Source: an uncultured Albidiferax sp.
GTDB lineage: Bacteria; Pseudomonadota; Gammaproteobacteria; Burkholderiales; Burkholderiaceae_C
Direction of reading: 5' to 3'
Assembly: GCA_963513025.1 (NCBI GenBank)
Contig: CAUPON010000021.1
Location: 6,487 to 70,486, forward strand
Length of the DNA: 64,000 nucleotides
The translations under genes were made by a program, and so were the position numbers. Shown here piece by piece: positions 30,766-46,118 of this stretch. Below the pieces are notes generated by a model. It was not told the origin of the DNA, searched no databases, and saw only the letters and a program-made list of their open reading frames with translations. Each line of letters opens with the position of its first letter. Position 1 is the first letter of the stretch.

Positions 30766-31626
30766 CTACTTCTTGCCCTTGACATGGCCTTCCAGCTCGG
30801 AAAAGCTGGGGCGGTCAGTCGAGAATAAAACCTTGCGACCGAATTCGATCGCTGTGGCGGGGTTGTAGCCCTGCATACTGGCCAGCAAGGTGGATTTCAT
30901 GCATTGCAGCTCTTTGGCGCCGTCTTCGGTTTTTTGCTCCAACAGCCCGCCAAGAGGTTCTACCACGCCATATGCGAGCAAGATCCCCAGGAAAGTACCC
31001 ACCAACGCAGACGCGATCATGCCGCCCAGCACCGCTGGCGGTTGTCCCACCGAACCCATGGTGTTTACCACCCCCAGCACCGCCGCCACAATTCCGAAAG
31101 CGGGCAAAGCGCCAGCCAGCCGTGCAATGGCGGCGATCGGGGCGTGGGCTTCTGCGTGGTGGGTGTCAATCTCGCTGTCCATCAGCGACTCGATTTCATG
31201 GGCGTTCAGGTTGCCTGACACCATCATTCGCAGGTAGTCGGTCATGAACTCCACCACGTGGTGGTCGCTGCCGACCGTGGGGTATTTTTTGAAAAGCTCC
31301 GACTCGTGCGGGGATTCCACGTCACCTTCGATGGCCATCAGCCCTTCTTTGCGGGCTTTTTGCAGGATGTCATACAGCAGCGATAGCAGTTCCAGGTAGC
31401 GGGTCTTGGTGTACTTCGAGCCTTTGAGCGCCTGCGGCAGCAGTGCCATGGTGGCTTTGAGTACTTTGGGTTGGTTGTTTACCGCAAAAGCCCCGAGTGC
31501 GCCGCCGAAAATGGTGATCAGCTCGAACGGCAAGGCCTTCAAAATCACAGCAATGTTGCCACCGTGGAAGATGTAAACACCGAAGATGCAACCCATGGAG
31601 ACGGCATAGCCGATAAGGACGATCAT
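30766..31626 (-). CDS. motA: Stator protein A
   Basis: DYLRMMV, PAFGIVAAVLG, ALVGTFLGILLAYG. Confidence 0.96.
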   Translation of the reverse strand: MIVLIGYAVSMGCIFGVYIFHGGNIAVILKALPFELITIFGGALGAFAVNNQPKVLKATMALLPQALKGSKYTKTRYLELLSLLYDILQKARKEGLMAIEGDVESPHESELFKKYPTVGSDHHVVEFMTDYLRMMVSGNLNAHEIESLMDSEIDTHHAEAHAPIAAIARLAGALPAFGIVAAVLGVVNTMGSVGQPPAVLGGMIASALVGTFLGILLAYGVVEPLGGLLEQKTEDGAKELQCMKSTLLASMQGYNPATAIEFGRKVLFSTDRPSFSELEGHVKGKK

Positions 31627-31700
31627 GTCTGGGGGCGCGCAGGAGTTGGGGCGGTGTAGGGGTGCATCGTTATCAAAAGCGGCTTTTAACCTATCTAAAT

Positions 31701-31727
31701 GTATCGGATATGTTGGACCTTACTTTA
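31701..31727 (-). promoter_or_regulatory. Sigma28 promoter of motAB-cheYZ
   Basis: Minus strand TAAA-N15-TCCGATAC. Confidence 0.7.
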
Positions 31728-31840
31728 AAAATAAGGACCACAAAAGGTCATTTAATCGGGCCTTGCTGCAGGGGGTGAAGGTTTATCCTCCCACGAGACG
31801 GATGTCCTGTAAACCATCTCTTACGCAAGGCTGATTGACT

Positions 31841-34800
31841 ATGACTGATTTGACGGACGCTGCCAGTCTTGTCTTGCCCGATGTTGATGCGATGCAGGAT
31901 ACCTTGCAGCAGGCGTTGGAGGCCCATAAAAAATGGGAGTTCGTGTCCGCGGAAGCCTTGTACCGCGCGGTGCTGGAGCTTGATCCTCTGCATGCGGATG
32001 CGCACCACAATCTGGGGGTTTTGCTGGCCGTGCAATTGCTGCGACCACAAGAGGCATTGCCGCACTTCGAGGCCGCACTCAATGCGGATGCAGGGCGCCC
32101 GCAGTTCTGGTTCAGTTACATCGACGCCCTGATCCGCTGCCAGCATTTCGATCTGGCGCGCGAGGTGCTTCCGCTGGCCCAGGCCCAGGGTTTGCAGCTG
32201 GCTGCCGTGAATGCCCTGAGTGAACGGTTGCCTCATCTGTCTCTGAATACCGCCCCGCCGGCGCCTTCCGAACCCTCTGCCGAAGAGATGCAAGCCTTGG
32301 TTCAGCTATTCAATCAGGGTGACTATGCACAGGGCGAAGCGCGCGCCCGTGCACTGGTCCAGCGCTGCCCAGAAAATGGTTTCGCCTGGAAGGCGCTGGG
32401 CACCATGCTACAGCCGCAGGGCAAGAAGGAAGAGGCGTTGGCAGCCAAGTTAAAAGCCGTACAGCTTTTGCCAGAGGATGCAGAAGGCCTGTGCAATTTG
32501 GGCCGCTCGTATTTCGAGCTGGGCCAGACCCAGCAGGCCATCGAAGTGTTGCAGGCCTGTGTGTCCGTCAAGCCGGATTACGCTGAGGCTTTCAATAACT
32601 TGGGCTTGGCCTTGAACGCAGACGGCCAGGTGGATGCTGCGCACCGCTGTTTTGAGCGTGCGATCGCCATACAACCCGGTTTCGCGGAAGCGTTGAACAA
32701 TCTGAGTGGCATTTTTAATGTCCATGGCCTGGTGGACGAGGCTGTCGCAGTGCTGCAAAAAGCGGTGGCGGCCAAGGCCGACTACCGCATCGCCTTCGAC
32801 AACCTGCTGTTTGTATTGAATTACCACCCCGACAAGAGCGCGGAAGACATATTTCAAACCTATGGCGAGTACGAGAAGCGCTTTGGACTGCCGCACCGCG
32901 CCAGTTGGGCCCGGCACCAAAACTCGCGCAATGCCCAGCGGCGCTTGAAGGTCGGTTATGTGTCGCCCGACTTCAAAGGCCATGCCTGCACCTTCTTCAT
33001 GGAGCCGCTGCTGTCCAAGCATGACCGCAACCTGATAGATGTCTATGCCTACGCCGAGTTGACCCAAGAAGACGCTGCAACCCAGCGCTACAAGCAATAT
33101 GTAGAGCATTGGGTGCCCACCCGCGGCATGAGCGACGACGCACTGGCCCAGCGCATCCGGGCCGACGGCATCGACATCTTGGTCGACCTGGCGGGCCACA
33201 CCGCCGGCAACCGCCTGGGCGTGTTTGCGCGCAAGCCAGCTCCGGTGTCGCTAAGCTGGATGGGCTTTGGCTACACCACTGGCCTGAAAGCCATCGACTA
33301 CTACCTGACCGACGATGCCAGCGCTCCGGTTGGCTGCGAGCATGTGTTCTCTGAACAACCATGGCGCCTGCCTGATAGCAGCTACGCCGTGTACCGCCCA
33401 GGGGCCGGCATGGGAGAAGTCAGTACGCTGCCCGCGCAGGAACGCGGCTATGTCACCTTGGGCACCTTAACCCGCGGCGTTCGTATCAACCACCACACCA
33501 TCCGCGTCTGGGCCCAAATACTGCAACGCCTGCCCACGGCCCATATTGTCATCGACAGCAGTTCTTTTAAGGACACAACGGTGCGCGACGCCGCGATAGG
33601 CAAATTCGGCGTTTATGGAGTAGCAGCCGAGCGCCTGCACATCGGCTTTAATAGCCCCCCCTGGGATGTGCTGCGCGGAATCGATATCGGCCTGGACTGC
33701 TTCCCGCATAATTCGGGCACCACCTTGTTCGAGACCCTGTACATGGGGCTGCCCTTCATCACCCTGGCCGGTCGGCCCAGCGTAGGCCGCATCGGCAGCG
33801 CCATTCTGCAAGGTCTCGGCCGGCCGGAGTGGATTGCCCAGACGGAAGAAGAATATGTAAACAAGGTGGTCGCCCTGGCATCAGACCTGCCAGCCCTGGC
33901 CCAACTGCGCACCACACTGCGTGCCCAGATGCAGGCCAGCCAGCTGATGGACGAAGTGGGTTTTACGCGCAAGGTCGAGCAAGCCTATGGCCAGATGTTC
34001 GCGCGCTGGGCACAGCAGAACCCTGTATCGCAGGTGGACACCACACCGGCGCTGGTGACGCGCCGCCATGCGCCTAGCGCGGACGAGATGCGCTTGCTGG
34101 CCTCGTTCTTCGAGTCGCGTGACTTTGTCGCCGGCGCTGCGGCCGCGCGCGAAGTGGTGCGTTTGTATCCCCGCGAAGGCTTTGGCTGGAAGGCGCTGGG
34201 CGCCATGCTGCACCCTCTGGGTCTGGTGGATGAGGCGCTGGCGGCCAAAAAGAAGGCCGTGGAGCTGATGCCGCAGGACGCCGAGGCGGCCTGTAACCTG
34301 GGCCAGTCGCTGCAAGACCAGGGGCACTACATGCTGGCCGAGGCCGCCTTGCAGCGGGCTCTGGTGCTGAATCCCGATTACGCGGAGGCCTATAACAACC
34401 TCGCCATCACGTACCAAAAAATGGGCCGTATTGCCGAGTCGGAAACCAACTTCCGGGCCGCTCTGGCGCTGAAACCCCAGCATAAATGGGTGTACGACAA
34501 CTTTTTGTTCACGCTGAACTACCACCCGGAGCACAGCGCCGAAACCATTTTTGAAGCCTACCGCGAATACGAGCGGCGCTTTGGCGATCCGTACCGGGGT
34601 GACTGGGTCGCGCATGGCAATGACCGCAGCCTGGGCCGGCGCTTACGGGTCGGCTATGTGTCGCCCGACTTCCGCAGCCATTCCTGCACTTTCTTCATGG
34701 AGCCCTTGCTGGCCTGGCACGACCCGGCCGTGGTCGAGGTCACTGCCTACGCCGAGCTGAACAAGGAGGATGCCGTCACCCAGCGTTACCAGCGCCATGT

Positions 34801-37800
34801 GGCGCACTGGGTGCCCACGCGCGGCATGAGCGATGCCGATCTGGCCCAGCGTATCCGGGCCGACGGCATCGACATCCTGGTCGACCTGGCTGGCCATACC
34901 GTCGGCAACCGTTTGGGCGTGTTTGCGCGCAAACCGGCCCCGGTGTCGCTGAGCTGGATGGGCTATGGCTACACCACCGGCCTGCGCGCCATCGATTACT
35001 ACCTGACCGACGAGGCCAGCGCCCCTGTAGGCAGCGAAGCGCTGTTCTCCGAGGAACCCTGGCGCCTGCCGGACAGCTGCTACGCTGTGTACCGCCCGGG
35101 CGACGGCATGGGCGAGGTGAACTCCTTGCCGGCGCTGCAGCGCGGGTACGTCACGTTGGGCACCCTGACCCGCGGTGTGCGCATCAACCACCACACGGTC
35201 AGCGTCTGGGCGCGGGTGCTGCAGCGCCTGCCGACTGCCCATCTGGTGGTTGACAGCCGGTCTTTCCAGGACGCGGCGGTACAGGAAGATGTGATGCAGA
35301 AATTTGTGGCCCTGGGCATAGAGCGCGAGCGCCTGCACATTGGCTTCAACAGCCCCCCCTGGGATGTGCTGCGCGGCATCGACATAGGCCTGGACTGCTT
35401 CCCGCACAACTCCGGCACCACCTTGTTCGAGACTCTGTACATGGGCCTGCCGTATGTGACCCTGGCCGGCCGGCCCAGCGTGGGCCGCATCGGCAGCGCC
35501 ATCCTGCACGGTCTCGGCCGTCCGGAGTGGATTGCCACCACCGAAGACGAATACGTGGATAAAGTGGTCGCCCTGGCATCCGATCTACCGGCCTTGGCCC
35601 GGCTGCGTGCTGGTTTGCGTGCGGAGATGCAGGCCAGCCAGTTGATGGATGAAGAGCGCTTCACCCGCAAGATGGAGCAGGCCTATGGCCAGATGTTCGA
35701 ACGCTGGGTCACCCGCACCGCAGCGGGGGCGGTAGAGGTAGTGCCCAGTGCAGACGCTATGAACGGTCTGGTGCGCCTGTACCAAGAGCAGGCTTTTGCA
35801 GAAGGCGAGCAAGCCGCGCAAGCCCTTGTCGCCCGCTATCCTCGCCACGGCTACAGCTGGAAGCTGCTGGGCTCGTTTGCGCAAAAATGCGGCCATGTCG
35901 ACGCGGCTTTGCAGGCCAAGCAACGCGCTGTGCAGCTCCTGCCTGACGATACCGAGGCGTTGTTCAACCTGGCCATGGCCTATGAGCAGCAGGGCCTGAT
36001 GCGGCAAGCCGAGCCCTGCTACCGCGCGCTGATTGCCTTGCAGCCGGGCGATGCCGAGGCGCACCACAACCTCGGCAACACCCTGGTGGGCCAGGGGCGG
36101 CGCAACGAGGCCATTCCTTGTTACCGCGAAGCCTTGCGGCTCAAGCCCGACTTTGAAGCATCGCACCAAAGCCTTGGGGGCTTGTTGCAGGAGTCGGGTG
36201 GCCTAGTCGAGGCGGAATCGGTCTGGCGCAGCCTGCTGCAGCTCAAGCCCGACGATATGCAGGCAGCCTTGCAACTGGGCCGGGTCTTGCAGCAGCAAGG
36301 ACGGCGGGCCGAGGCCGAGGTCAGCTTCCGCAAGGCGGTCGATGTGTCGGACGACAGCCATGTGGGTTACTTCCACCGCGGCAACTTCCTGGGTGAACTG
36401 GGCTTGCTGGCCGAAGCCGAGGCGGATTTGCGCCGGGCTGTGGAGATCGAACCCCAGGCCGCCGAGGCCTGGAGCAATCTTTGCGGCATCCTCAAGGAGC
36501 AGTGCCGGCTGGTGGAGGCCGAGGCCTGCGCCGTCAAAGCCTTGGAGATCAAGCCCGAGTTTGTCGCCGGCTGGGCCAACCATGCGGTGGTCCTGCTGAT
36601 GCAGGGGCGCCTGGCCGAGGCCGAGGTGAGTTTTCGGCGTGCCATGGCCTTGGAGCCGCAGCTGGTGGGCATTTTCTCCAGCCTTCTGTTTGCGCTGAAC
36701 TACGACGCCGATAAAACGGCGGAGGAGATCTACGCCAACTACGCTGAGTTCGACCGGCTTTTTGGCGCTCCGCACCGGTCGGCTTGGCTCCCGCACAGCA
36801 ATCCGCCCGCAGCTGGGCGCCGGCTGAAGGTCGGGTACATGTCGCCCGATTTCAAAGGCCATGCGTGCACCTTCTTTATGGAGCCCCTGCTGTCCCAGCA
36901 CGACCGCAGCGTGGTGGATGTCTATGCCTACGCCGATCTAGTGAAGGAAGACGCTGCAACCCAGCGCTACAAGCAATATGTAGAGCATTGGGTGCCCACC
37001 CGTGGCATGAGCGACGACGCATTGGCCCAGCGTATCCGCGCCGACGGCATCGACATTTTGGTTGACCTGGCGGGCCACACCGCCGGCAACCGTCTGGGCG
37101 TGTTTGCGCGCAAGCCGGCGCCGGTATCTCTGAGCTGGATGGGCTTTGGCTACACCACCGGCCTGAAAGCCATCGACTACTACCTGACCGACGATGCCAG
37201 CGCTCCGGCGGGTTGCGAGCATCTCTTCTCAGAGCAACCCTGGCGCCTGCCCGACAGCAGCTATGCCTCCTACCGGCCCAGCACGAGCATGGGCGAAGTC
37301 AGTACGCTGCCCGCGCTGGAGCGCGGCTATGTCACCCTGGGCACCCTGACCCGCGGCGTGCGCATCAACCGCCACACCATCCGTGTGTGGGCCCAGATAC
37401 TGCAACGCTTGCCTACGGCCCACCTCGTGATGGACAGCAGCTCATTCAAAGACCAGGTAGTGCAGGAATCGGTGGCCCGGAAGTTTGTCGCCTACGGCAT
37501 AGACCGCGCGCGGCTGCACATCGACTACAGCAGCCCGCCGTGGAACGTGCTGCGCGGCATCGACATCGGGTTGGACTGCTTCCCGCACAATTCGGGCACC
37601 ACCTTGTTCGAAACCCTGTACATGGGGCTGCCGTTTGTCACCCTGGCCGGTCGGCCCAGCGTAGGCCGCATTGGCAGCGCCATCCTGCACGGAGTGGGGC
37701 ATCCGGAATGGATTGCCCAGACCGAAGAAGAGTATGTGGACAAGGTCGTCGCCCTGGCCTCGGACCTGCCTGCCTTGGCCCAGCTGCGCACCACACTACG

Positions 37801-37906
37801 TGCCCAGATGCAGGCCAGCCAGCTGATGGACGAGGTGGGCTTTACGCGCAAGGTTGAGCAGGCCTATGGCCAGATGTTCGCACGCTGGAAGGAGCAGCAA
37901 AAATGA
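31841..37906 (+). CDS. Giant TPR / GT41 (OGT/SPINDLY-like) glycosyltransferase with three catalytic modules
   Basis: TPR blocks ([16 protein letters not shown]) alternate with three copies of [60 protein letters not shown]; ATG 31841 (the ORF track starts at TTG 31835). Confidence 0.9.
32795..34009 (+). repeat. GT41 module 1 (1215 bp)
   Basis: [13 protein letters not shown]...YGQMFARW. Confidence 0.85.
34493..35707 (+). repeat. GT41 module 2 (1215 bp)
   Basis: [13 protein letters not shown]...YGQMFERW; offset 1698 bp from module 1. Confidence 0.85.
36674..37888 (+). repeat. GT41 module 3 (1215 bp)
   Basis: [13 protein letters not shown]...YGQMFARW; offset 3879 bp from module 1; 56-bp exact match 33068-33123 vs 36947-37002. 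Confidence 0.85.
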
Positions 37907-38673
37907 AAGCAGTGATATTGGCCGGGGGCTTGGGCACCCGGATTTCCGAAGAGACGCATCTGCGCCCCAAGCCCATGATCGAGATCGGCGGCAAGCCCAT
38001 ACTTTGGCACATCCTGAAGATGTATTCGGCCCACGGCGTGAACGACTTTGTGATCTGCTGCGGCTACAAGGGCTACATCATCAAGGAATACTTCGCCAAC
38101 TACTTTCTGCACATGTCCGACGTGACCTTCGACATGGCGCAGAACCGCATGGAAGTGCACCACAAGCACGCCGAACCCTGGAAGGTCACCCTGGTGGACA
38201 CGGGAGACGACTCCATGACCGGCGGCCGCCTCAAGCGCGTAGCCGACTACGTGAAAAACGAGCCTGCCTTCTGCTTCACCTATGGCGATGGCGTGTCTGA
38301 CGTGGACATCAGCGCCAGCATTGCCTTCCACCAGCAGCACGGCAAGCTGGCCACGGTGACGGCCGTACAGCCCCCGGGCCGCTATGGCGCGCTGCGCATG
38401 GAGGGCGACGTGGTGCAGGGTTTTACTGAGAAGCCGCGTGGCGACGGCGGCCTGATCAACGGTGGCTTCTTCGTGCTTTCACCCCAGGTGCTGGACCGCA
38501 TCGTCGGCGACAGCACCAGCTGGGAAGCCGAGCCGCTGGCCGGTCTGGCCGAGGAAGGCCAGCTGCGCGCCTACGAGCACACCGGCTTCTGGCAGCCAAT
38601 GGACACGCTGCGCGAGAAAAACCTGCTGGAAGAACTCTGGTCCTCCGGCAAAGCCCCCTGGAAAAAATGGTAA
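37903..38673 (+). CDS. rfbF: Glucose-1-phosphate cytidylyltransferase
   Basis: [46 protein letters not shown]; ATGA overlap with the GT gene. Confidence 0.95.
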
Positions 38674-39728
38674 CCAGCGTCTGGACAAATACCCCGGTTT
38701 TCTTGACCGGCCACACCGGCTTCAAAGGCGGCTGGTTGACCCTGGCCTTGCACGCCATGGGGGCCAAGGTCCACGGCTATGCGCTGGACCCGCACACCCA
38801 GCCCAGTCTGTTCGAGGTGGCGCGCGTGGCCGATGCCCTGGCCAGCGACACCCGGGCCGATTTGGCTGACCGAGCGGCGCTGCAGGCGGCCTTGGCCGCG
38901 GCCCAGCCCACGGTGGTGTTCCACCTGGCCGCCCAGCCCCTGGTGCGCGCCAGCTATGCCGACCCTTTGGGTACTTTTGCCACCAATGTGATGGGCACGG
39001 CCCATCTGCTGGAGGCCGTGCGCCAGGTGCCCAGCGTGCGCGCCGTGGTGGTGGTGACCACCGACAAGGTCTACGACAACCGCGAATGGGTCTACCCCTA
39101 CCGCGAAGCCGATGCCCTGGGCGGCCACGACCCCTACAGCGCCAGCAAGGGCGCCGCCGAGATCGTCGCCGCCAGCTACCGCGCCAGCTTCTTCCATGGC
39201 GCCGATGCGGCGCAGATCGCCACGGCGCGCGCCGGCAATGTGATCGGTGGCGGCGACTGGGCGGCAGACCGCCTGGTGCCCGACTGCCTGCAGGCCTTTG
39301 CCGCCGGCCAGCCGGTGCAGCTGCGCTACCCCGGCGCCGTGCGCCCCTGGCAGCACGTGCTAGAGCCCTTGTCCGGGTATGTTCGCTTGGCCGAACACCT
39401 GTTGGCCCGTGCGCCAGAGGCCGCCAGCGCCTGGAACTTTGGCCCCGACGCCCGCGGCGACGCCAGCGTGGGCCAATTGGCCCAGCGCCTGGCCAGCCTG
39501 TGGGGGCAGGGCGCCCGCGTGGACATGCCTGACGGCGGCGACCATCCCCACGAGGCCGGCCTGCTGCGCCTGGACATCACCCGCGCCCGCGCCCAGCTGG
39601 ACTGGCAGCCGCGCTGGAGCCTGGACCAGGCGCTGGAGCACACAGTGGCCTGGCACCGCGCCTGGCGTGCGGGTGAAGACATGGCCCAGCTCTGCCGCAG
39701 CCAGATGGAGGCCTATGGCCCGTTGTAA
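38667..39728 (+). CDS. rfbG: CDP-glucose 4,6-dehydratase
   Basis: [50 protein letters not shown]. Confidence 0.95.
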
Positions 39729-39732
39729 TTTT

Positions 39733-39790
39733 TTTGCTATTTTATTGATAGCTTCTCGCGCAGGTGATACCTGCGCTAGAGGCCAATTTT
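39733..39790 (+). repeat. REP-like repeat, copy 4 (inside the sugar operon)
   Basis: GCTAT-tttattg-ATAGC-ttctc-GCGCAGGT-gat-ACCTGCGC-TAGAGGC; perfect 8-bp stem 39758-39776. Confidence 0.8.
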
Positions 39791-39812
39791 GTTCAAAGAA
39801 AGTGGCGCAGCC

Positions 39813-40373
39813 ATGAGCCGCTTTGAATTGCAAGCCACCCCGCTGTCCGGTCTGTGGGTGGTGCAGCGCCAGCGCCTGGGCGATGCCCGGGGCTTTCTGT
39901 CGCGCTTGTTCTGCGCCGACGAGCTGGCTGCGGCCGGCTGGGTCGGTGCCATTGCCCAAATCAACCACACCCAGACGGCCGAGCCCGGCACCGTGCGCGG
40001 CCTGCACTTCCAGCACCCGCCGCATGCCGAGATGAAGCTGGTCAGCTGCATACGCGGCGCGGTGTGGGACGTGGCGGTGGACCTGCGGCCCGACTCGCCT
40101 ACCTATCTGCGCTGGCATGCCGAGACGCTGTCGGCCGACAACCAGCGTGCGCTGCTGATCCCCCCCGGCTTTGCCCACGGCTTCCAGGCGCTGGAGGCCG
40201 ATGTGGAAATGCTGTACTGCCATTCCCAGGCCTACGCCCCGCAGAGCGAGGCCGGCTTGCACCCGCAGGACCCGCGCCTGGCCATTGCTTGGCCGCTGCC
40301 GGTGCGCGGCCTGTCTGCCCGTGACGCCAGCCACCCGCCGATGGGCGATGATTTTGAAGGAGTTCGTTTGTGA
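39813..40373 (+). CDS. rfbC: NDP-4-keto-6-deoxyhexose 3,5-(or 5-)epimerase (RmlC/RfbC cupin family)
   Basis: DARGFL, VRGLHFQ, KLVSCIRGAVWDVAVDLR, GFAHGFQAL; start re-called to ATG 39813. Confidence 0.88.
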   Translation: MSRFELQATPLSGLWVVQRQRLGDARGFLSRLFCADELAAAGWVGAIAQINHTQTAEPGTVRGLHFQHPPHAEMKLVSCIRGAVWDVAVDLRPDSPTYLRWHAETLSADNQRALLIPPGFAHGFQALEADVEMLYCHSQAYAPQSEAGLHPQDPRLAIAWPLPVRGLSARDASHPPMGDDFEGVRL

Positions 40374-41599
40374 AATGCCGCCACTGTGGGGCCCTGCTGA
40401 GCCTGCCTTTTCTGGACCTGGGCAGCGCGCCGCCCAGCAATGCCTACCTGACCGACACCACACTGAACGCGCCCGAGGTCTGGTACCCGCTGCGCGTGCT
40501 GGTCTGCCAGCACTGCTGGTTGGTGCAAACCGAGGACCACGCCGGGCGCGAGGCCTTGTTTACCGCCGACTACGCCTACTTCAGCAGCATCTCCAGCTCC
40601 TGGCTGGCCCATGCCCAGGCCTATGTGGTCGAGATGCAGCAGCGCTTCGCACTCGGCGCGCAGAGCCGGGTGGTCGAGGTCGCCTCCAACGACGGCTATC
40701 TGCTGCAGTACGTGCAGGCCGCTGGCGTGCCTTGCTACGGAATCGAGCCCACGGCCAGCACGGCGGCCGCCGCCAAGGCCAAGGGTATTGCGGTGGTGGA
40801 GCGCTTCTTTGGCGTGGCGCTGGCGCAGGAGCTGGTGGCCCAGGGCCAGCAGGCCGACCTGACCGCCGCCAACAATGTGTTGGCCCATGTGCCCGACATC
40901 AACGACTTCGTTGCCGGCTTTGCCGCGCTGCTCAAGCCCCAGGGCGTGGCGACCTTCGAGTTCCCGCATGTGCAGCAGATGGTGCAGCAGTGCCAGTTCG
41001 ACACCGCTTACCACGAGCACTATTCCTACCTGTCGCTCACGGCGGTACAGCGCATCTTTGCCGCCAATGGTCTGCAGGTGTTCGACGTGCAAGAGCTGCC
41101 CACCCATGGCGGCAGCCTGCGCGTATTCGCCCAGCGGGCCGATACCGGCACCCAGCCTGTGGCACCCGCTGTGCAGCAGGTGCTGCTGGGCGAAGAAGCG
41201 GCCGGCATGCGCACGCCTGATTTCTACAGCCAATTTGGCGCCCAGAGCAGGCGCATCGCGCGTGAGCTGCTCTCATTTTTGGTAAACGCCGCACATGCGG
41301 GCACCTCTATCGCCGCCTATGGTGCCGCCGCCAAAGGCAACACTCTGCTGAACTTTGCCGGCGTGCGCCCGCACCTGCTGCCCTATGTGGTGGACCGTGC
41401 CCCGGCCAAGCAGGGCAAATACATGCCCGGCAGCCGTATCCCCATCGTGGACGAAGCCCAGCTGCGCGCGCAGCAGCCGCGCTATGTGCTTATCCTGCCG
41501 TGGAATCTGCAGGCCGAGGTGATGGAGCAGCTGGCTTACATCCGCGACTGGGGTGGTCGCTTTGTCACCGCCGTGCCCGGGCTGGTCGTGTGGCCGTGA
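40370..41599 (+). CDS. SAM-dependent NDP-hexose C-methyltransferase (TylCIII/EryBIII/NovU/TcaB9 family)
   Basis: Zn site CRHC...CQHC, YAYFSS, EVASNDGYLL, NVLAHV, YHEHYSY, PTHGGSLR, YGAAAKGNTLLN. Confidence 0.9.
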   Translation: MKCRHCGALLSLPFLDLGSAPPSNAYLTDTTLNAPEVWYPLRVLVCQHCWLVQTEDHAGREALFTADYAYFSSISSSWLAHAQAYVVEMQQRFALGAQSRVVEVASNDGYLLQYVQAAGVPCYGIEPTASTAAAAKAKGIAVVERFFGVALAQELVAQGQQADLTAANNVLAHVPDINDFVAGFAALLKPQGVATFEFPHVQQMVQQCQFDTAYHEHYSYLSLTAVQRIFAANGLQVFDVQELPTHGGSLRVFAQRADTGTQPVAPAVQQVLLGEEAAGMRTPDFYSQFGAQSRRIARELLSFLVNAAHAGTSIAAYGAAAKGNTLLNFAGVRPHLLPYVVDRAPAKQGKYMPGSRIPIVDEAQLRAQQPRYVLILPWNLQAEVMEQLAYIRDWGGRFVTAVPGLVVWP

Positions 41600-42480
41600 A
41601 GGTACTGCTCACCGGCGCCAGCGGCTACCTGGGCCGCTACGTGCTGGCCAGCCTGCGCGCGCAGGGCTGTGAGGTGGTGGTACTGGGTCGCAGCCTGCCT
41701 GCCGGCTTTGAGGATGTACCCCTGGTGCCCTGCGACCTGCTCGACGGCGCGGATCTGGCGGCAGCAGTGCAGCAGGCCGGCGCCACCCATCTCATGCACC
41801 TGGCCTGGACCACCGAATACGGCGTGTACTGGGCGTCGCCGTTGAACTTCCGCTGGGTCGATGCAACCTTGCGCCTGTTACAGGCCTTTTGCGACGCCGG
41901 TGGCCGGCATGTGGCCATCGCCGGCACCTGCGCCGAATACGACTGGGCCTCCGGTTATCTGCGCGAAGACGCCACGCCCTATGCGCCGGCCACGCTGTAC
42001 GGAGTGGCCAAGGACGCGACCCGCCGCATGGCCGCGGCGCTGTGTGCGGCCCGCGGCGTGTCGCTTGCCTGGGGCCATATCTTCTTCCCATTCGGTCCGG
42101 GCGAGGCCACCCAGCGCATGCTGCCCTCGCTGCTGCGGGTGTTCCGCGGCCAGGCGGAGCCTTTCGGGGTGAATCTGGCGGCTTACCGCGGCATGCTGTA
42201 TGTGCCGGATGCGGCGAATGCGCTGGCGACCGTGCTGCTGCAGGGCTGCAAGGGCAACTTCAATATCTGCTCGGGCCAGCCGGCGCTGATCGGCGACGTA
42301 GTGCAGACCCTGGCCCGTTTGTGCAATGCCGACCCCGTTCCGGTGCTGGCCCTTGCGACTGCCCGCCCCGGCGATCCACCGATGCTGGTGGGCGAAAACA
42401 CCCGCTTGCTGGCCACCGGCTGGCGACCTACTTTTACGCTGGAGCAGGGCCTGGCCGCCCTGGTCCGTTCAACAGCTTGA
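41596..42480 (+). CDS. NAD(P)-dependent NDP-4-ketosugar reductase/epimerase (extended SDR)
   Basis: VLLTGASGYLG, GTCAEY, LYGVAK; GTG start 41596 overlaps the previous stop. Confidence 0.88.
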   Translation: MKVLLTGASGYLGRYVLASLRAQGCEVVVLGRSLPAGFEDVPLVPCDLLDGADLAAAVQQAGATHLMHLAWTTEYGVYWASPLNFRWVDATLRLLQAFCDAGGRHVAIAGTCAEYDWASGYLREDATPYAPATLYGVAKDATRRMAAALCAARGVSLAWGHIFFPFGPGEATQRMLPSLLRVFRGQAEPFGVNLAAYRGMLYVPDAANALATVLLQGCKGNFNICSGQPALIGDVVQTLARLCNADPVPVLALATARPGDPPMLVGENTRLLATGWRPTFTLEQGLAALVRSTA

Positions 42481-42498
42481 TGCCAACAGGAGATCTCT

Positions 42499-43281
42499 AT
42501 GACCACCCCAGAACAACAATTTGCGGCCGAGCGCCAAGAGCGGCTCAGCGCCTACGCACAAGACAACGCGTTCAAAGACCTGTCGCGCCAATGGCTGCAA
42601 ATGTCGATGGACAAAAAGTATGTATACAACTTTGACTGGCTCGGCCGGCCCATCATCCAGTACCCGCAGGACATGGTCGCTATCCAGGAGCTGGTTTGGA
42701 CGGTGCGCCCTGATCTGATCATTGAAACCGGCATTGCCCACGGTGGCTCGTTGATCCTCAGTGCGTCCATGCTGGCCATGCTGGACATGTGCGATGCCAT
42801 TGAAAGCGGCACCAGCATTGATCCACGGGTGTCGGCGCGCAAGGTGATTGGCATCGACATCGACATCCGCGAGCACAACCGTGCCGCCATCCAAGCCCAC
42901 CCCATGGCCAGCCGCATCCAGATGGTGCAGGGCTCGTCGATTGCGGCGGATGTGGTGGCCCAGGTGCGGGAAGCGGCGCAGGGCTACAAAAAAGTGATGG
43001 TGTTCCTGGATTCCATGCACACCCACGACCACGTGCTGGGCGAGTTGGATGCATATGCGCCGCTGGTTAGCCCGGGCAGCTACTGCGTGGTGTTCGACAC
43101 CTTTGTGGAAGACATGCCGCCCAAATTCTTTGCCGACCGCCCCTGGGATATCGGCAACAACCCCAAGACCGCCACCCGCCAGTGGTTGAAGGGCCACCCG
43201 GAGTTTGTGGTGGACCCTGCGGCCGAATCGCGGCTGATGGTGACGGTGGCGCCCGAAGGCTTCCTGAAGCGCTTGGCCTAG
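42499..43281 (+). CDS. CmcI / cephalosporin-hydroxylase family protein (probable sugar O-methyltransferase)
   Basis: WLGRPIIQYPQDM, PDLIIETGIAHGGS, VFLDSMHTHDHV, YCVVFDT. Confidence 0.85.
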   Translation: MTTPEQQFAAERQERLSAYAQDNAFKDLSRQWLQMSMDKKYVYNFDWLGRPIIQYPQDMVAIQELVWTVRPDLIIETGIAHGGSLILSASMLAMLDMCDAIESGTSIDPRVSARKVIGIDIDIREHNRAAIQAHPMASRIQMVQGSSIAADVVAQVREAAQGYKKVMVFLDSMHTHDHVLGELDAYAPLVSPGSYCVVFDTFVEDMPPKFFADRPWDIGNNPKTATRQWLKGHPEFVVDPAAESRLMVTVAPEGFLKRLA

Positions 43282-43386: not shown

Positions 43387-43414
43387 AAAAAAAGACCCCT
43401 AGGGGTCTTTTTTT
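43387..43414. terminator. Bidirectional intrinsic terminator
   Basis: Perfect 28-bp palindrome AAAAAAAGACCCCT/AGGGGTCTTTTTTT between the convergent CmcI-family gene and flagellin 1. Confidence 0.8.
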
Positions 43415-43431: not shown

Positions 43432-44655
43432 TTATTGTTGCAGCAGGGTCAGCACGCTCTGTGGCAGCTTGTTGGCTTGGGCCACCATGGCGGTACCTGC
43501 CTGTTGCAGGATCTGGGTGCGCGACAGATTGGCGGTTTCCATTGCGAAGTCGGCGTCCACGATCCGGCCCTTGGCGGCAGCCAGGTTTTCGATCTGGATG
43601 CTGATGTTGCTGACCGCGCTTTCAAAGCGGCTTTGTAAGGCGCCGAGGCCGGCACGCGCCGAGTTCACCTGGTCGATGGCTTCGTCGATCTTCTTCAGCG
43701 CGACCCAGGAGTTACGCTGTGTATCCACCGTCAAGGTGTCGATGCCCAAGGCGTCGGTGGTTGTGTCGGTGGAGTTGATGTTGGAAGCCAATGCGCCGCC
43801 GGCCAAGCCGGTGGTGGCGGTGGTGAAGCCGGCCAGGGTCACGACCTTGGCGTCGCCAGCCGAGTCGAGCTCGGCGGACATCAGGTCGATGCGGTAGGTC
43901 TGGTCGTCGTTTTGCGACAGGAAGGCTGTCACACCAGTGTCCGCAGACTTACGGTTGATCGCCTCGATAACCTGTCCCATGCGTTCTTCGCCTGAATTGG
44001 CAGCGGAAATCGCGCCCAGATCAAAAGCCGCGGTGTCGCCGGTGACCGAAATCGTCAAGGTGTTGCTGGCGAGGGAGGTAAGTGTGCTGACGGCGGATGC
44101 GTCCACATTGCTAGCGGTCTGGTCGAATGCGTAGGCCACATCGGACAAACCCTTGGCGGTCGAGTTGGTCAAGGCGCCCAGCGATGCCACGTCGCCAGAG
44201 TTGGCGCCCACCTGGAACACCGCGCCAGCAAACGAGCCGTCGAGGATTTTTTTGCCGTTGAACGAGGTTTGCTTGGCAATCCGGTCGACTTCGTCTGTCA
44301 GCTGTGTAACTTCAGCCTGCAGCGCGGCACGGTCGGCTTTGCTATTGGTCGCATTGCTGGCCTGGACTGCCAGTTCACGCATACGTTGCAGCATGTCGCC
44401 CACCTTGCCCAACGCGCCTTCAGCGGTTTGCGCCAGCGAAATGCCGTCGTTGGCGTTACGCGCCCCGACGGTCAGGCCGCGCACCTGGGTGGTCATGCGT
44501 TCCGAAATGGCCAAACCGGCTGCATCGTCCTTGGCGCTATTGACCCGCAAGCCGGAAGACAGGCGTTGCATGGAGGTTGCCAGCGAGTTGGCCGAGGTAG
44601 CCAGGTTGCGCTGCGCATTGAGCGAATTGATGTTCGTGTTGATCGTTGCAGCCAT
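43432..44655 (-). CDS. fliC: Flagellin 1
   Basis: QRLSSGLRVNSAKDDAAGLAIS, LQRMRELAVQASN, RIVDADFAMETANLSRTQILQQAG. Confidence 0.97.
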   Translation of the reverse strand: MAATINTNINSLNAQRNLATSANSLATSMQRLSSGLRVNSAKDDAAGLAISERMTTQVRGLTVGARNANDGISLAQTAEGALGKVGDMLQRMRELAVQASNATNSKADRAALQAEVTQLTDEVDRIAKQTSFNGKKILDGSFAGAVFQVGANSGDVASLGALTNSTAKGLSDVAYAFDQTASNVDASAVSTLTSLASNTLTISVTGDTAAFDLGAISAANSGEERMGQVIEAINRKSADTGVTAFLSQNDDQTYRIDLMSAELDSAGDAKVVTLAGFTTATTGLAGGALASNINSTDTTTDALGIDTLTVDTQRNSWVALKKIDEAIDQVNSARAGLGALQSRFESAVSNISIQIENLAAAKGRIVDADFAMETANLSRTQILQQAGTAMVAQANKLPQSVLTLLQQ

Positions 44656-44810: not shown

Positions 44811-44837
44811 TAAAGTTTTCTGTGGGGCACCCGAAAA
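44811..44837 (+). promoter_or_regulatory. Sigma28 promoter of flagellin 2
   Basis: TAAAGTTT-N11-CCCGAAAA. Confidence 0.7.
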
Positions 44838-44897: not shown

Positions 44898-46118
44898 ATG
44901 TCCACCTCTATCAATACGAACATCAATTCGCTCAATGCGCAGCGCAATTTGATGTCGTCGGCCAACTCGTTGGCGACGTCTATGCAGCGTTTGTCCTCGG
45001 GTTTGCGGGTGAACAGCGCCAAGGATGATGCCGCCGGCTTGGCGATTTCCGAGCGCTTCCTGACCCAGGCCAAAGGTTTGACGGTCGGTGCCCGTAACTC
45101 CAACGACGGCATTTCGCTGGCGCAAACCGCTGAAGGCGCGTTGGGTAAGGTCGGCGACATGCTGCAGCGTATGCGTGAACTGGCAGTCCAGGCCAGCAAT
45201 GCAACCAACAGCAAGGCCGACCGCGCTGCACTTCAGTCCGAAGTTTCCCAGCTGACCGACGAAGTCGACCGGATTGCCAAGCAAACCACCTTCAACGGCA
45301 AAAAAGTGTTGGACGGTTCGTTCGCCGGTGCAGTGTTCCAGGTGGGCGCCAACGCTGGTGACAATATTTCTGTGGGTGCACTGACCAATTCCAGTGCCAA
45401 GGGTTTGTCCGATGTGTCATACGCCTTCGACCAAGCTGCCAGCAATGTGGATGCTTCTGCCGTCAGCACGCTGACTTCCATCGCCACCAACGTCTTGACG
45501 GTGTCGGTGACAGGCGATGCTGCTGCCTTTGATCTGGGGGCGATTGCCGCCGCCAGCTCTGGCGAAGAGCGTATGGGCCAGATCGTTGAAGCAATCAACC
45601 GTAAGTCTGCCGATACCGGTGTGACGGCCTTCTTGTCGCAAAACGACGACCAGACCTACCGTGTCGACCTGATGTCCAGTGAACTGGACTCGGCTGGCGA
45701 CGCCAAGGTTGTGACTCTGGCTGGTTTCACCACCGCCACCACCGGCTTGGCCGGCGGCGCATTGGCCTCTAATATCAATGCCACCAATACCACCACCGAT
45801 GCCCTGGGTATCGATACCTTGACGGTGGACACACAGCGCAACTCCTGGGTCGCGCTGAAGAAGATCGACGCCGCCATCGACCAGGTGAACTCGGCACGTG
45901 CGGATCTGGGTGCTTTGCAAAGCCGCTTTGAAAGCGCCGTGGGCAATATTGCGATCAGCGTGGAAAACATCTCTGCTGCACGTGGTCGGATTGTGGATGC
46001 TGACTTCGCGTCGGAAACCGCCAATCTGTCGCGTACCCAGATCCTGCAGCAGGCAGGTACCGCCATGGTGGCCCAGGCCAACAAGCTGCCACAGAGCGTG
46101 CTGTCTCTGCTGCAATAA
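44898..46118 (+). CDS. fliC: Flagellin 2
   Basis: Same conserved termini as flagellin 1; central region highly similar. Confidence 0.97.
   Translation: MSTSINTNINSLNAQRNLMSSANSLATSMQRLSSGLRVNSAKDDAAGLAISERFLTQAKGLTVGARNSNDGISLAQTAEGALGKVGDMLQRMRELAVQASNATNSKADRAALQSEVSQLTDEVDRIAKQTTFNGKKVLDGSFAGAVFQVGANAGDNISVGALTNSSAKGLSDVSYAFDQAASNVDASAVSTLTSIATNVLTVSVTGDAAAFDLGAIAAASSGEERMGQIVEAINRKSADTGVTAFLSQNDDQTYRVDLMSSELDSAGDAKVVTLAGFTTATTGLAGGALASNINATNTTTDALGIDTLTVDTQRNSWVALKKIDAAIDQVNSARADLGALQSRFESAVGNIAISVENISAARGRIVDADFASETANLSRTQILQQAGTAMVAQANKLPQSVLSLLQ

Follow-up and report, generated by a model that had tools for sequence, protein, structure and literature searches.

A candidate cytoplasmic flagellin O-glycosylation island with a three-module GT41 enzyme and a CDP-sugar cassette in an uncultured Albidiferax

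Layout of the island

A 64,000-nucleotide (nt) stretch of contig CAUPON010000021.1 (hereafter the window) from an uncultured Albidiferax sp. (GCA_963513025.1) carries an operon of seven genes on the forward strand at positions 31841–43281. The source is a 4.95-Mb draft genome whose proteins have their nearest relatives in Rhodoferax and Albidiferax, family Comamonadaceae. In order, the genes code for a large protein with three glycosyltransferase family 41 modules (GT41x3), a glucose-1-phosphate cytidylyltransferase (rfbF), a CDP-glucose 4,6-dehydratase (rfbG), a sugar epimerase, a sugar C-methyltransferase, a reductase, and a CmcI-type O-methyltransferase. The unit lies between motA and the only two flagellin genes of the genome, and our preferred reading, held at a probability of about 70%, is that it is a cytoplasmic flagellin O-glycosylation island. 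An earlier sequence-only reading had described a same-strand unit in this position with overlapping or near-abutting starts and stops. Profile matches placed all of its genes at the coordinates claimed, and the junctions agree with the description: they are, in order, overlaps of 4 and 7 nt, a gap of 84 nt, two further overlaps of 4 nt each, and a gap of 18 nt. The unit is translationally coupled, and at its first junction the rfbF start codon overlaps the stop codon of the GT41x3 gene by 4 nt.

Flagellar and chemotaxis genes occupy the surrounding 55-kb region (8.8–64 kb of the window) throughout. One flank reads flhA-flhB-cheZ-cheY-motB-motA, with motA at 30766–31626 on the reverse strand, and the other carries the two flagellin genes, fliD, fliS, and fliT, followed by fliF and onward. 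The absence of a flippase, polymerase, or ABC exporter, also noted in the earlier reading, holds between 8.8 and 64 kb, and no lipid-carrier, flippase, or oligosaccharyltransferase genes were found in the window. No transmembrane segments were predicted in the seven proteins, in which no hydrophobic 19-mer scores above 1.58, and all seven products appear to be soluble and cytoplasmic, with no membrane-glycan step expected in the island. A transferase gene and nucleotide-sugar genes thus stand beside flagellins within a flagellar region, which is the layout of a flagellin glycosylation island, and the arrangement is kept in relatives.

The presumed acceptors are flagellin A (43432–44655, reverse strand, 407 amino acids [aa]) and flagellin B (44898–46118, forward strand, 406 aa). 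Both match PF00669 and PF00700, and they are 89% identical to each other. A bidirectional intrinsic terminator at 43387–43414 (AAAAAAAGACCCCTAGGGGTCTTTTTTT), a perfect GC-rich hairpin between an A-run and a T-run, is common to the operon and the convergent flagellin A gene.

The CDP-sugar cassette and its predicted product

The six genes downstream of GT41x3, all on the forward strand, were assigned by profile and structure-database matches. The products of rfbF (37903–38673) and rfbG (38667–39728) have equivalog matches to TIGR02623 (478.9 bits against a cut-off of 300.25) and TIGR02622 (491.2 bits against 278.45), respectively. The next gene (39813–40373) codes for an RmlC-family sugar epimerase of 3,5-, 3-, or 5-type (PF00908, 198 bits); its open reading frame (ORF) opens at 39789, the probable start is the ATG at 39813, and its TIGR01221 score of 148.4 bits falls just below the cut-off of 155.75. 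Its Protein Data Bank (PDB) matches are RmlC, NovW, EvaD, and ChmJ. The S-adenosylmethionine-dependent sugar C-methyltransferase (40370–41599; PF08421 and PF08484) belongs to the TylC3/TcaB9 family, has a zinc-ribbon N terminus, and matches the 3-C-methyltransferases MtmC, KijD1, and TcaB9 over its full length (E 4e-65 to 2e-62). The reductase (41596–42480, 294 aa; PF01370) is a short-chain dehydrogenase/reductase (SDR) of the nucleotide-sugar 4-ketoreductase type. Its ORF opens at 41500, and its start was corrected to the GTG at 41596 (MKVLLTGASGYLG), which overlaps the C-methyltransferase stop codon; the best PDB match is the GDP-6-deoxy-D-lyxo-4-hexulose reductase 2pk3 (Rmd; E 2e-21). The last gene (42499–43281) codes for a sugar O-methyltransferase of the CmcI/rhamnosyl-O-methyltransferase family (PF04989, 315.9 bits), a family-level match only, with an NF045824 score of 78.8 bits that lies far under the cut-off of 400. 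The CDP-sugar genes are single-copy in the genome, and a dTDP-rhamnose locus is separate, on another contig.

Taken in order, these enzymes would build a branched, doubly methylated sugar. RfbF would convert glucose-1-phosphate and CTP to CDP-D-glucose and RfbG would convert this to CDP-4-keto-6-deoxy-D-glucose, two steps that can be regarded as secure given their equivalog-level matches. The RmlC-like enzyme would then epimerize beside the keto group to give the L-series, the TylC3/TcaB9-family enzyme would add a C-methyl branch, most likely at C3, the SDR would reduce the 4-keto group, and the CmcI-type enzyme would O-methylate the sugar. Family-level matches underlie these four later steps, so that their regiochemistry and stereochemistry and the position of the O-methyl group are predictions. 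The expected product would be a CDP-6-deoxy-3-C-methyl-O-methyl-L-hexose of the vinelose type.

Such a sugar nucleotide has reportedly been isolated before. Okuda, Suzuki, and Suzuki (J Biol Chem 1967–68) are said to have found CDP-vinelose in Azotobacter vinelandii, vinelose being described as 6-deoxy-3-C-methyl-2-O-methyl-L-talose, and the same work is said to have found its 4-O-(O-methylglycolyl) ester. The enzyme set in the window fits this chemistry step for step. We know of no genes assigned experimentally to vinelose. Within a sample of 401 Pseudomonadaceae genomes, 56 carry the C-methyltransferase and eight carry VnfD, a vanadium nitrogenase subunit that marks the Azotobacter group; three of these eight have the family's best C-methyltransferase matches (71%–72% identity). 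One genome with VnfD (G090) also encodes a protein of TPR-GT41-GT2 architecture (TPR, tetratricopeptide repeat) that is 100% identical to a protein named from A. vinelandii CA. The locus in this genome (L125:7588–19078, contig G090:C55) carries, on one strand, genes for a UDP-glucose dehydrogenase, RfbF, RfbG, the epimerase, the C-methyltransferase, a hexapeptide acyltransferase, an SDR, a CmcI-type enzyme, a PhyH dioxygenase, and a TylF O-methyltransferase, and convergent with this cassette are the TPR-GT41-GT2 gene and a flagellin gene. Gene order is the same as in the window, and identities to the window proteins are 79% for RfbF, 71% for the C-methyltransferase, and 73% for CmcI. Because A. 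vinelandii carries an orthologous cassette beside a TPR-GT41 gene and a flagellin, the window product is probably a vinelose-type sugar.

The two loci differ in other respects. The window lacks three ester-type genes, and the A. vinelandii transferase belongs to another GT41 subfamily, with a single module that retains the lysine discussed below and is fused to a GT2 domain. The acyltransferase, PhyH dioxygenase, and TylF enzyme of A. vinelandii would fit the 4-O-(O-methylglycolyl) ester ascribed to this organism, for which we infer a route of acyl transfer, hydroxylation, and O-methylation. The cluster on the flagellin side of A. vinelandii is a candidate gene assignment for CDP-4-O-(O-methylglycolyl)-vinelose. 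This locus appears to provide the strongest available argument both for a vinelose-type product and for its use on flagellin.

A related pathway is known by report from Bacillus cereus, where Li et al. (J Biol Chem 2017) are said to have characterized CDP-cereose/CDP-cillose synthesis (Cyt-Deh-Cmt-Red) biochemically, with a product that decorates the protein-rich spore surface. By that description, it shares with the window the course from CDP-glucose through a 4,6-dehydratase and a 3-C-methyltransferase to a reductase, but it has no epimerase or O-methyltransferase (its sugars are of the D-series and not O-methylated), has no GT41 enzyme, and is not flagellar. To our knowledge, the cassette, present in hundreds of species, is unstudied outside B. 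cereus.

The three-module transferase

The GT41x3 gene (31841–37906, forward strand) codes for a soluble protein of 2021 aa, in which an N-terminal TPR-like region (aa 1–140) is followed by three modules, each a TPR array and a GT41 catalytic domain, with boundaries taken from hmmsearch. Module 1 (32261–34015) has its TPR array at aa 141–320 and its catalytic domain at aa 321–725 (nt 32801–34015). Module 2 (34016–35713) has these at aa 726–886 and 887–1291 (nt 34499–35713), and module 3 (35714–37894) at aa 1292–1613 and 1614–2018 (nt 36680–37894). The PF13844 match reaches 432.7 bits (cut-off 25) in six stretches that correspond to the two lobes of each of three catalytic domains, and TPR families match in addition; PF13844 also matches in a Caulobacter control genome. 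For each catalytic domain, the best PDB sequence match is Arabidopsis SPINDLY (SPY; E 2.7e-70 for module 1, ~40% identity over 410 aa), ahead of the OGT proteins of Thermobaculum, human, and Xanthomonas. An AlphaFold2 model of module 1 (mean predicted local distance difference test score 81.7) has 11 TPR helices and then a bilobal GT-B domain with Rossmann-like lobes. In a Foldseek search with this model, the top 50 matches were all GT41 structures (SPY, OGT, TtOGT, and XcOGT), SPY ranking highest (E 1.9e-32). Together, the profile match across both lobes and the predicted TPR/GT-B fold place GT41x3 in CAZy family GT41, to which OGT, SPY, and HMW1C/NGT belong.

SPY is a GT41 protein O-fucosyltransferase that transfers a 6-deoxy-L-hexose to protein Ser/Thr (PMC9715652; PDB 7y4i, 8dtf–8dti). 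Like GT41x3, it is cytoplasmic and carries its GT-B catalytic domain directly behind a TPR array. It differs in having one module, GDP-fucose as donor, and eukaryotic regulatory targets, whereas the window enzyme has three modules and is linked to a CDP-based pathway.

The three catalytic domains (~405 aa each) are far more alike than the arrays that precede them. Their pairwise identity is 76%–84%: the values are 77% for modules 1 and 2, 76% for modules 2 and 3, and 83.5% for modules 1 and 3 (82.4% in DNA). The TPR arrays measure 180, 161, and 322 aa, the array of module 3 being roughly double the length of either other one, and their mutual identity is 38%–46% (42%–46% for the array of module 2 against the others and 38%–42% for that of module 3). 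An assembly artefact or repeat expansion was considered as a source of the three modules and rejected. The gene is taken as genuine because the same three-module architecture occurs in an orthologue with 97% identity (2021 aa, on a 158-kb contig) and in another with 74% identity in a complete genome, and because the modules diverge from each other by 18%–22% in DNA. Multi-module proteins are common in this group; among the best 120 matches and two added proteins, 22 have two modules, 37 have three, 57 have four, and three have five.

A tree built from the modules of 14 proteins shows that catalytic domains cluster within proteins. Modules 1 and 3 of the window pair with each other, all three catalytic domains of homologue P0032 are nearly identical, and only modules 3 and 4 of four-module proteins keep position-specific clades. 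In the window protein and in P0002, P0015, and P0032, the catalytic domains have apparently been homogenized within each protein by gene conversion while the TPR arrays diverged. The pattern is one of concerted evolution of an interchangeable catalytic unit beside diverging acceptor-binding arrays. Because the catalytic domains are near-identical, intact, and homogenized, and the TPR arrays have diverged in sequence and length, the modules may share one donor and address different sites, an arrangement we somewhat favor over one in which some modules extend sugar on sugar.

In a variant that is compatible with flagellin O-glycosylation, the modules would split the work, one initiating on Ser/Thr and the others extending it to a short homo-oligomer. 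Known flagellin islands do use separate initiating and extending transferases, as with Fgt1 and Fgt2 of Pseudomonas. Glycans of Acidovorax avenae amount to ~550 Da per site (PMC4622738), and the acceptor-positioning Ser of SPY is Ser in module 2 of the window enzyme and Ala in modules 1 and 3. Catalytic homogenization, at its most extreme in P0032, is nevertheless hard to square with different acceptor chemistries, the divergence is located in the protein-binding TPR arrays, and a 2-O-methyl, 3-C-methyl sugar has few free hydroxyls to extend. We consider such a division of labor unlikely, although it is the least improbable of the alternatives weighed here.

Residues defined by mutagenesis of SPY (PMC9715652) were transferred onto an alignment with the window modules. 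The equivalents in module 1 are H381, A382, R548, H623, and T627, and module 2 carries the motifs SPDFRSHS and TRGVRINHH. The active-site His equivalent to SPY H495 (OGT H558) is present in all three modules, and SPY D491 and T748 are conserved as well. The phosphate-binding Lys of SPY K665 (OGT K842) is replaced by Arg in all three modules, and the other exchanges are Y744, a Tyr on the fucose side, to His, H728 to Pro, and N661 to Thr. Among the GDP- and fucose-contacting SPY positions N661, K665, H728, Y744, and T748, only T748 is therefore retained, and the linked pathway is CDP-based; the window enzyme is SPY-like by fold and is not classed as a fucosyltransferase.

The Arg is a property of a group. 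Multi-module relatives have Arg at this position in 364 of 400 modules and His at the Tyr position in 362 of 400. Lys and Tyr are retained in a single-module subfamily, to which the proteins of A. vinelandii and Pseudomonas belong. Because of this difference between the two groups, the window enzyme is assigned to a distinct GT41 clade, termed R-type here. The exchange would be a conservative replacement of one basic residue by another. Adaptation to a CDP donor was considered as its cause and rejected, as A. vinelandii and Acidovorax-type loci pair the cassette with a Lys-retaining GT41.

With Arg in place of an essential Lys in every module, the modules might instead be catalytically dead, serving as a TPR scaffold, a chaperone, or a flagellin regulator in the manner of the Listeria anti-repressor GmaR. 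GmaR is described as a flagellin glycosyltransferase that is also regulatory (PMC9638930). However, the occurrence of Arg in 364 of the 400 modules together with the invariant His and an FPHNSGTT motif indicates purifying selection on an active site, and a dedicated donor pathway of six genes is coupled to GT41x3. Loss of catalysis is thus judged very improbable, the least credible of the alternatives.

Acceptor, distribution, and competing explanations

The layout motA/GT41xN-rfbF-rfbG-epimerase-...-CmcI/flagellin, flagellin, fliD recurs in a number of genomes. The enzyme of Comamonadaceae OS-1 has three modules, and its locus lacks the C-methyltransferase, with a TylF methyltransferase and an acyltransferase in its place. 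Four modules occur in Rhodoferax koreense, along with all six sugar genes found in the window. In Herbaspirillum ST 5-3, GT41xN and the cassette directly adjoin a flagellin gene. In a different phylum, Desulfomarina profundi (L131:10001–21473) has three GT41 genes (2063, 806, and 1014 aa) and then rfbF-rfbG-epimerase-C-methyltransferase between flagellin genes, which would represent an unfused or partly fused version of the window system. Upstream in D. profundi is a divergent block with CmcI and E1-type (transketolase-like) genes. The combination of GT41, cassette, and flagellin spans Comamonadaceae, Oxalobacteraceae, Pseudomonadaceae, and Desulfobacterota, and the GT41xN gene lies within the flagellar cluster in five of seven inspected contexts.

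A sample of 401 genomes from the family of the window contains 175 with some GT41 and 53 with the C-methyltransferase. At least 17 genomes, including the window's own, have the C-methyltransferase within ~6 kb of a GT41 match, a proximity count that is a lower bound. A close multi-module GT41 is present in all three other genomes of the genus, one of which has no C-methyltransferase, as fits the variation in sugars between strains that is typical of flagellin islands. The counts come from genome samples in which related genomes are not independent of each other. The pairing of this kind of enzyme and sugar is widespread, and we found no study of it.

A scan for the C-methyltransferase over species-representative genomes gave at least 599 carriers, and genomic contexts were taken from the best 80 loci. 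The order rfbF-rfbG-epimerase-C-methyltransferase is exact in 65 of these, and a CmcI homologue is present in 48. Eighteen loci are flagellar: 11 with GT41, six in Pseudomonas with a large GT2 right after flgK-flgL, and one on a truncated contig. Every complete locus that holds a flagellin also holds GT41 or the Pseudomonas-type GT2. A further six loci have GT41 only and one has the Pseudomonas-type GT2 only. In Pseudomonas sp. GR12-2 (L084:58–15843), and also at L087, L089, L090, and L092, the six-gene cassette follows flgK-flgL between GT2 proteins of 1212 and 1007 aa. This flgL-fliC island, in the classical position of flagellin glycosylation islands, shares its cassette with the window and differs in having these two large GT2 proteins, not GT41, as transferases.

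The mechanism we propose is that GT41x3 would bind unexported flagellin through its TPR arrays and transfer the CDP-sugar to flagellin Ser/Thr hydroxyls before flagellar type III export, with the three arrays directing equivalent catalytic domains to different acceptor sites. Glycosylation in the cytoplasm before export is known for other flagellin systems (PMC7591256, PMC3958885). From the arrangement of the island, we infer the use of the CDP-sugar by GT41x3, the role of flagellins A and B as acceptors, and the timing and place of transfer. The sequence-only reading had likewise proposed that a GT41 enzyme transfers a CDP-activated C-methyl-branched deoxysugar to flagellin, and this is the reading best supported by coupling of the genes, the single-copy pathway, the flagellin neighbors, and recurrence of the arrangement.

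Several observations weigh against flagellin O-glycosylation by this pathway, in addition to the replaced Lys. Both flagellins contain 19%–20% Ser+Thr overall and 24%–25% in the central domain (19.4% and 25% for flagellin A). The sequence-only reading had called them Ser/Thr-rich, but 19%–20% is ordinary for flagellins and not diagnostic, and this content was dropped as evidence. No sigma-28-like site (at least 12 of 16 matches) or sigma-70-like site was found upstream of the GT41 operon. Methylation at C3 and at C5 (noviose-type), and talo and manno configurations, are not separable by sequence, so the predicted sugar could be of either kind in each respect. The remaining points concern the genomic contexts of the cassette and of the transferase, and each bears on an alternative.

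For the cassette, flagellar genes and GT41 are both absent within 10 kb at 55 of the 80 loci, one of which, in Methylophilus, is a Wzx/GT2/GT11 polysaccharide cluster. An exclusively flagellar role of the cassette was rejected on these grounds. Because its contexts vary to this extent, polysaccharide cluster included, the cassette is best seen as a portable donor module. In the window, cassette and transferase might be unpartnered, with the CDP-sugar going to lipopolysaccharide or exopolysaccharide via an unlinked transferase, and GT41x3 using a housekeeping donor, for example UDP-GlcNAc, a GDP-sugar, or dTDP-rhamnose. Besides the Methylophilus cluster, this explanation could draw on the occurrence of 3-C-methyl-rhamnose in O-antigens (PMC7203242), on the dTDP-rhamnose genes elsewhere in the genome, and on Paraherbaspirillum, in which a GT41xN gene follows fliE, with amino-sugar genes and no adjacent rfbF. 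It is opposed by the 4-nt overlap of the GT41 stop and rfbF start, by recurrence of the pairing, which is seen in other phyla and in no fewer than 16 further genomes of the family, by the lack of membrane-associated glycan machinery in the 55-kb region, and by the loss of the fucose- and GDP-contacting residues of SPY. We regard an unpartnered island as improbable.

For the transferase, two R-type GT41xN genes lie directly downstream of giant ORFs that have no Pfam match, with no flagellin nearby: one in Hyphomicrobium sp. DMF-1 (L012:1–8952; ORF of >5900 aa) and one in Ferrovibrio sp. MS7 (L132:1–9725; ORF of >3800 aa). Because these enzymes adjoin giant proteins, the acceptor would be set by context and not by enzyme family. 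The two contexts suggest by analogy that the R-type class may glycosylate giant adhesin-like or surface proteins as HMW1C does HMW1. The donor in the window could then be as proposed and the acceptor another protein, such as FliD, hook proteins, adhesins, or many cytoplasmic proteins, with proximity to flagellin explained by co-regulation. A second, unlinked GT41 gene in the genome and the generic protein binding of TPR arrays would suit this explanation too. It sits less well with the position of GT41xN inside flagellar clusters in most of the contexts inspected, with the terminator shared by the operon and a flagellin gene, and with the fact that flagellin is the usual target of studied islands so placed (PMC3958885, PMC4622738). 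Another acceptor is improbable as well, if a shade less so than an unpartnered island. Both explanations are weakened by the GT41/rfbF overlap, the recurrence of the pairing, and the absent membrane glycan machinery, and transfer of the CDP-sugar to flagellin is retained as the preferred reading.

Flagellin islands with GT41, and flagellin transferases that combine TPR and GT-B domains, are already known. FlmG of Caulobacter crescentus is a flagellin O-glycosyltransferase whose TPR domain binds flagellin, and it has been reconstituted in Escherichia coli (PMC7591256). By its description, it is like GT41x3 in combining an N-terminal flagellin-binding TPR region with a C-terminal GT-B domain, in modifying several flagellins within the cytoplasm, and in using a cytidine-nucleotide donor, CMP-pseudaminic acid; it differs in being a single module of 596 aa that transfers a nonulosonic acid. 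Among the flagellin islands of Enterobacteriaceae surveyed by De Maayer and Cowan (2016), GT41 occurs in 14–15 island types, and one type has genes for CDP-4-keto-6-deoxyglucose (PMC4875605). These islands resemble the window in placing variable gene sets, with one or few transferases and nucleotide-sugar genes, by fliC. Their GT41 proteins are single-module and mostly fused to methyltransferases, the glycans are viosamine- or rhamnose-based or unknown, and neither tandem GT41 nor a C-methyl CDP-sugar has been described for them. Deletion of Fgt in A. avenae, a member of the window's family, gives unglycosylated flagellin (PMC4622738), as does deletion of FlmQ in Burkholderia cenocepacia (PMC4462625).

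The sequence-only reading knew of no characterized example of its combination. This stands insofar as no paper that we found links a CDP-glucose pathway to flagellin glycosylation in any particular system, but the locus is less singular than was thought, given the portability of the cassette and the earlier descriptions of GT41 islands and FlmG. Nor did we find in the literature a description of tandem complete GT41 modules, of the R-type active site, or of GT41 with a CDP-activated branched sugar. The elements that appear to be new are the tandem three-module enzyme, the Arg in place of the catalytic Lys, and the proposed CDP donor for GT41. A bolder proposal, offered tentatively and with somewhat less than even confidence, is that the tandem R-type proteins would form a separate class of protein glycosyltransferase and would be the first GT41 enzymes to use a CDP-linked branched sugar, with Arg for Lys and, in one chain, identical engines each steered by its own TPR array to another Ser/Thr patch, to give a fixed multi-site pattern on flagellin, and in some alphaproteobacteria on giant adhesin-like proteins too. 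As a corollary, CDP-vinelose, a nucleotide sugar orphaned since 1967, would be a flagellin-glycan donor.

If the flagellin reading is true, the donors of GT41, which are UDP-GlcNAc, GDP-fucose, and UDP-hexose, would be joined by a CDP-activated C-methyl-branched deoxysugar, the enzyme would be the first fusion of several complete protein-glycosyltransferase modules in one chain, and vinelose-type sugars would gain both genes and a biological role. The tandem modules offer a natural system for the study of site choice by TPR arrays, an open question for OGT and SPINDLY. Flagellin glycans affect motility, the adsorption of phages, and detection by the immune receptors of plants and animals, and for this reason a doubly methylated, hydrophobic filament sugar in common freshwater and soil bacteria would be ecologically relevant. 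The system is confined to seven genes whose products are all predicted to be soluble, and it should be reconstitutable in E. coli, as FlmG was.

Several minor features were identified in and around the operon. The divergent intergenic region between motA (reverse strand) and the GT41x3 gene (forward strand) spans 31627–31840 and holds a 14-mer, TAAATGTATCGGAT (31696–31709), that does not differ between the window, OS-1, and R. koreense. The -10 element of a sigma-28-like site of motA (31701–31727, reverse strand, 12 of 16 matches) falls on this 14-mer, and the -10 region of the site is invariant in the three genomes. A flagellar-class promoter for the operon was rejected, the sole conserved intergenic block belonging to motA. 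A sigma-28-like site at 44811–44837 (TAAAGTTT-N11-CCCGAAAA, 14 of 16 matches) precedes flagellin B, and no site comparable to that of flagellin B or motA was found before flagellin A.

A second GT41 gene in the genome (G000:C37:6179–8200) is single-module, 33% identical to the window modules, and located beside pgi and transaldolase genes. A low-complexity repeat region lies upstream of it, and neither flagellar nor sugar-pathway genes surround it, on which ground it was rejected as part of the window system. Within the otherwise overlapping stretch of the operon, an AT-rich spacer of 84 nt (39729–39812) separates rfbG from the epimerase gene, and GC content rises from ~0.62–0.64 to ~0.69 near it. 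RfbF is 92% identical to its counterpart in OS-1 and 88% to that in R. koreense, and RfbG is 87% identical to OS-1 and only 56% to R. koreense. Together these features suggest that the island is a mosaic with a recombination seam at this point.

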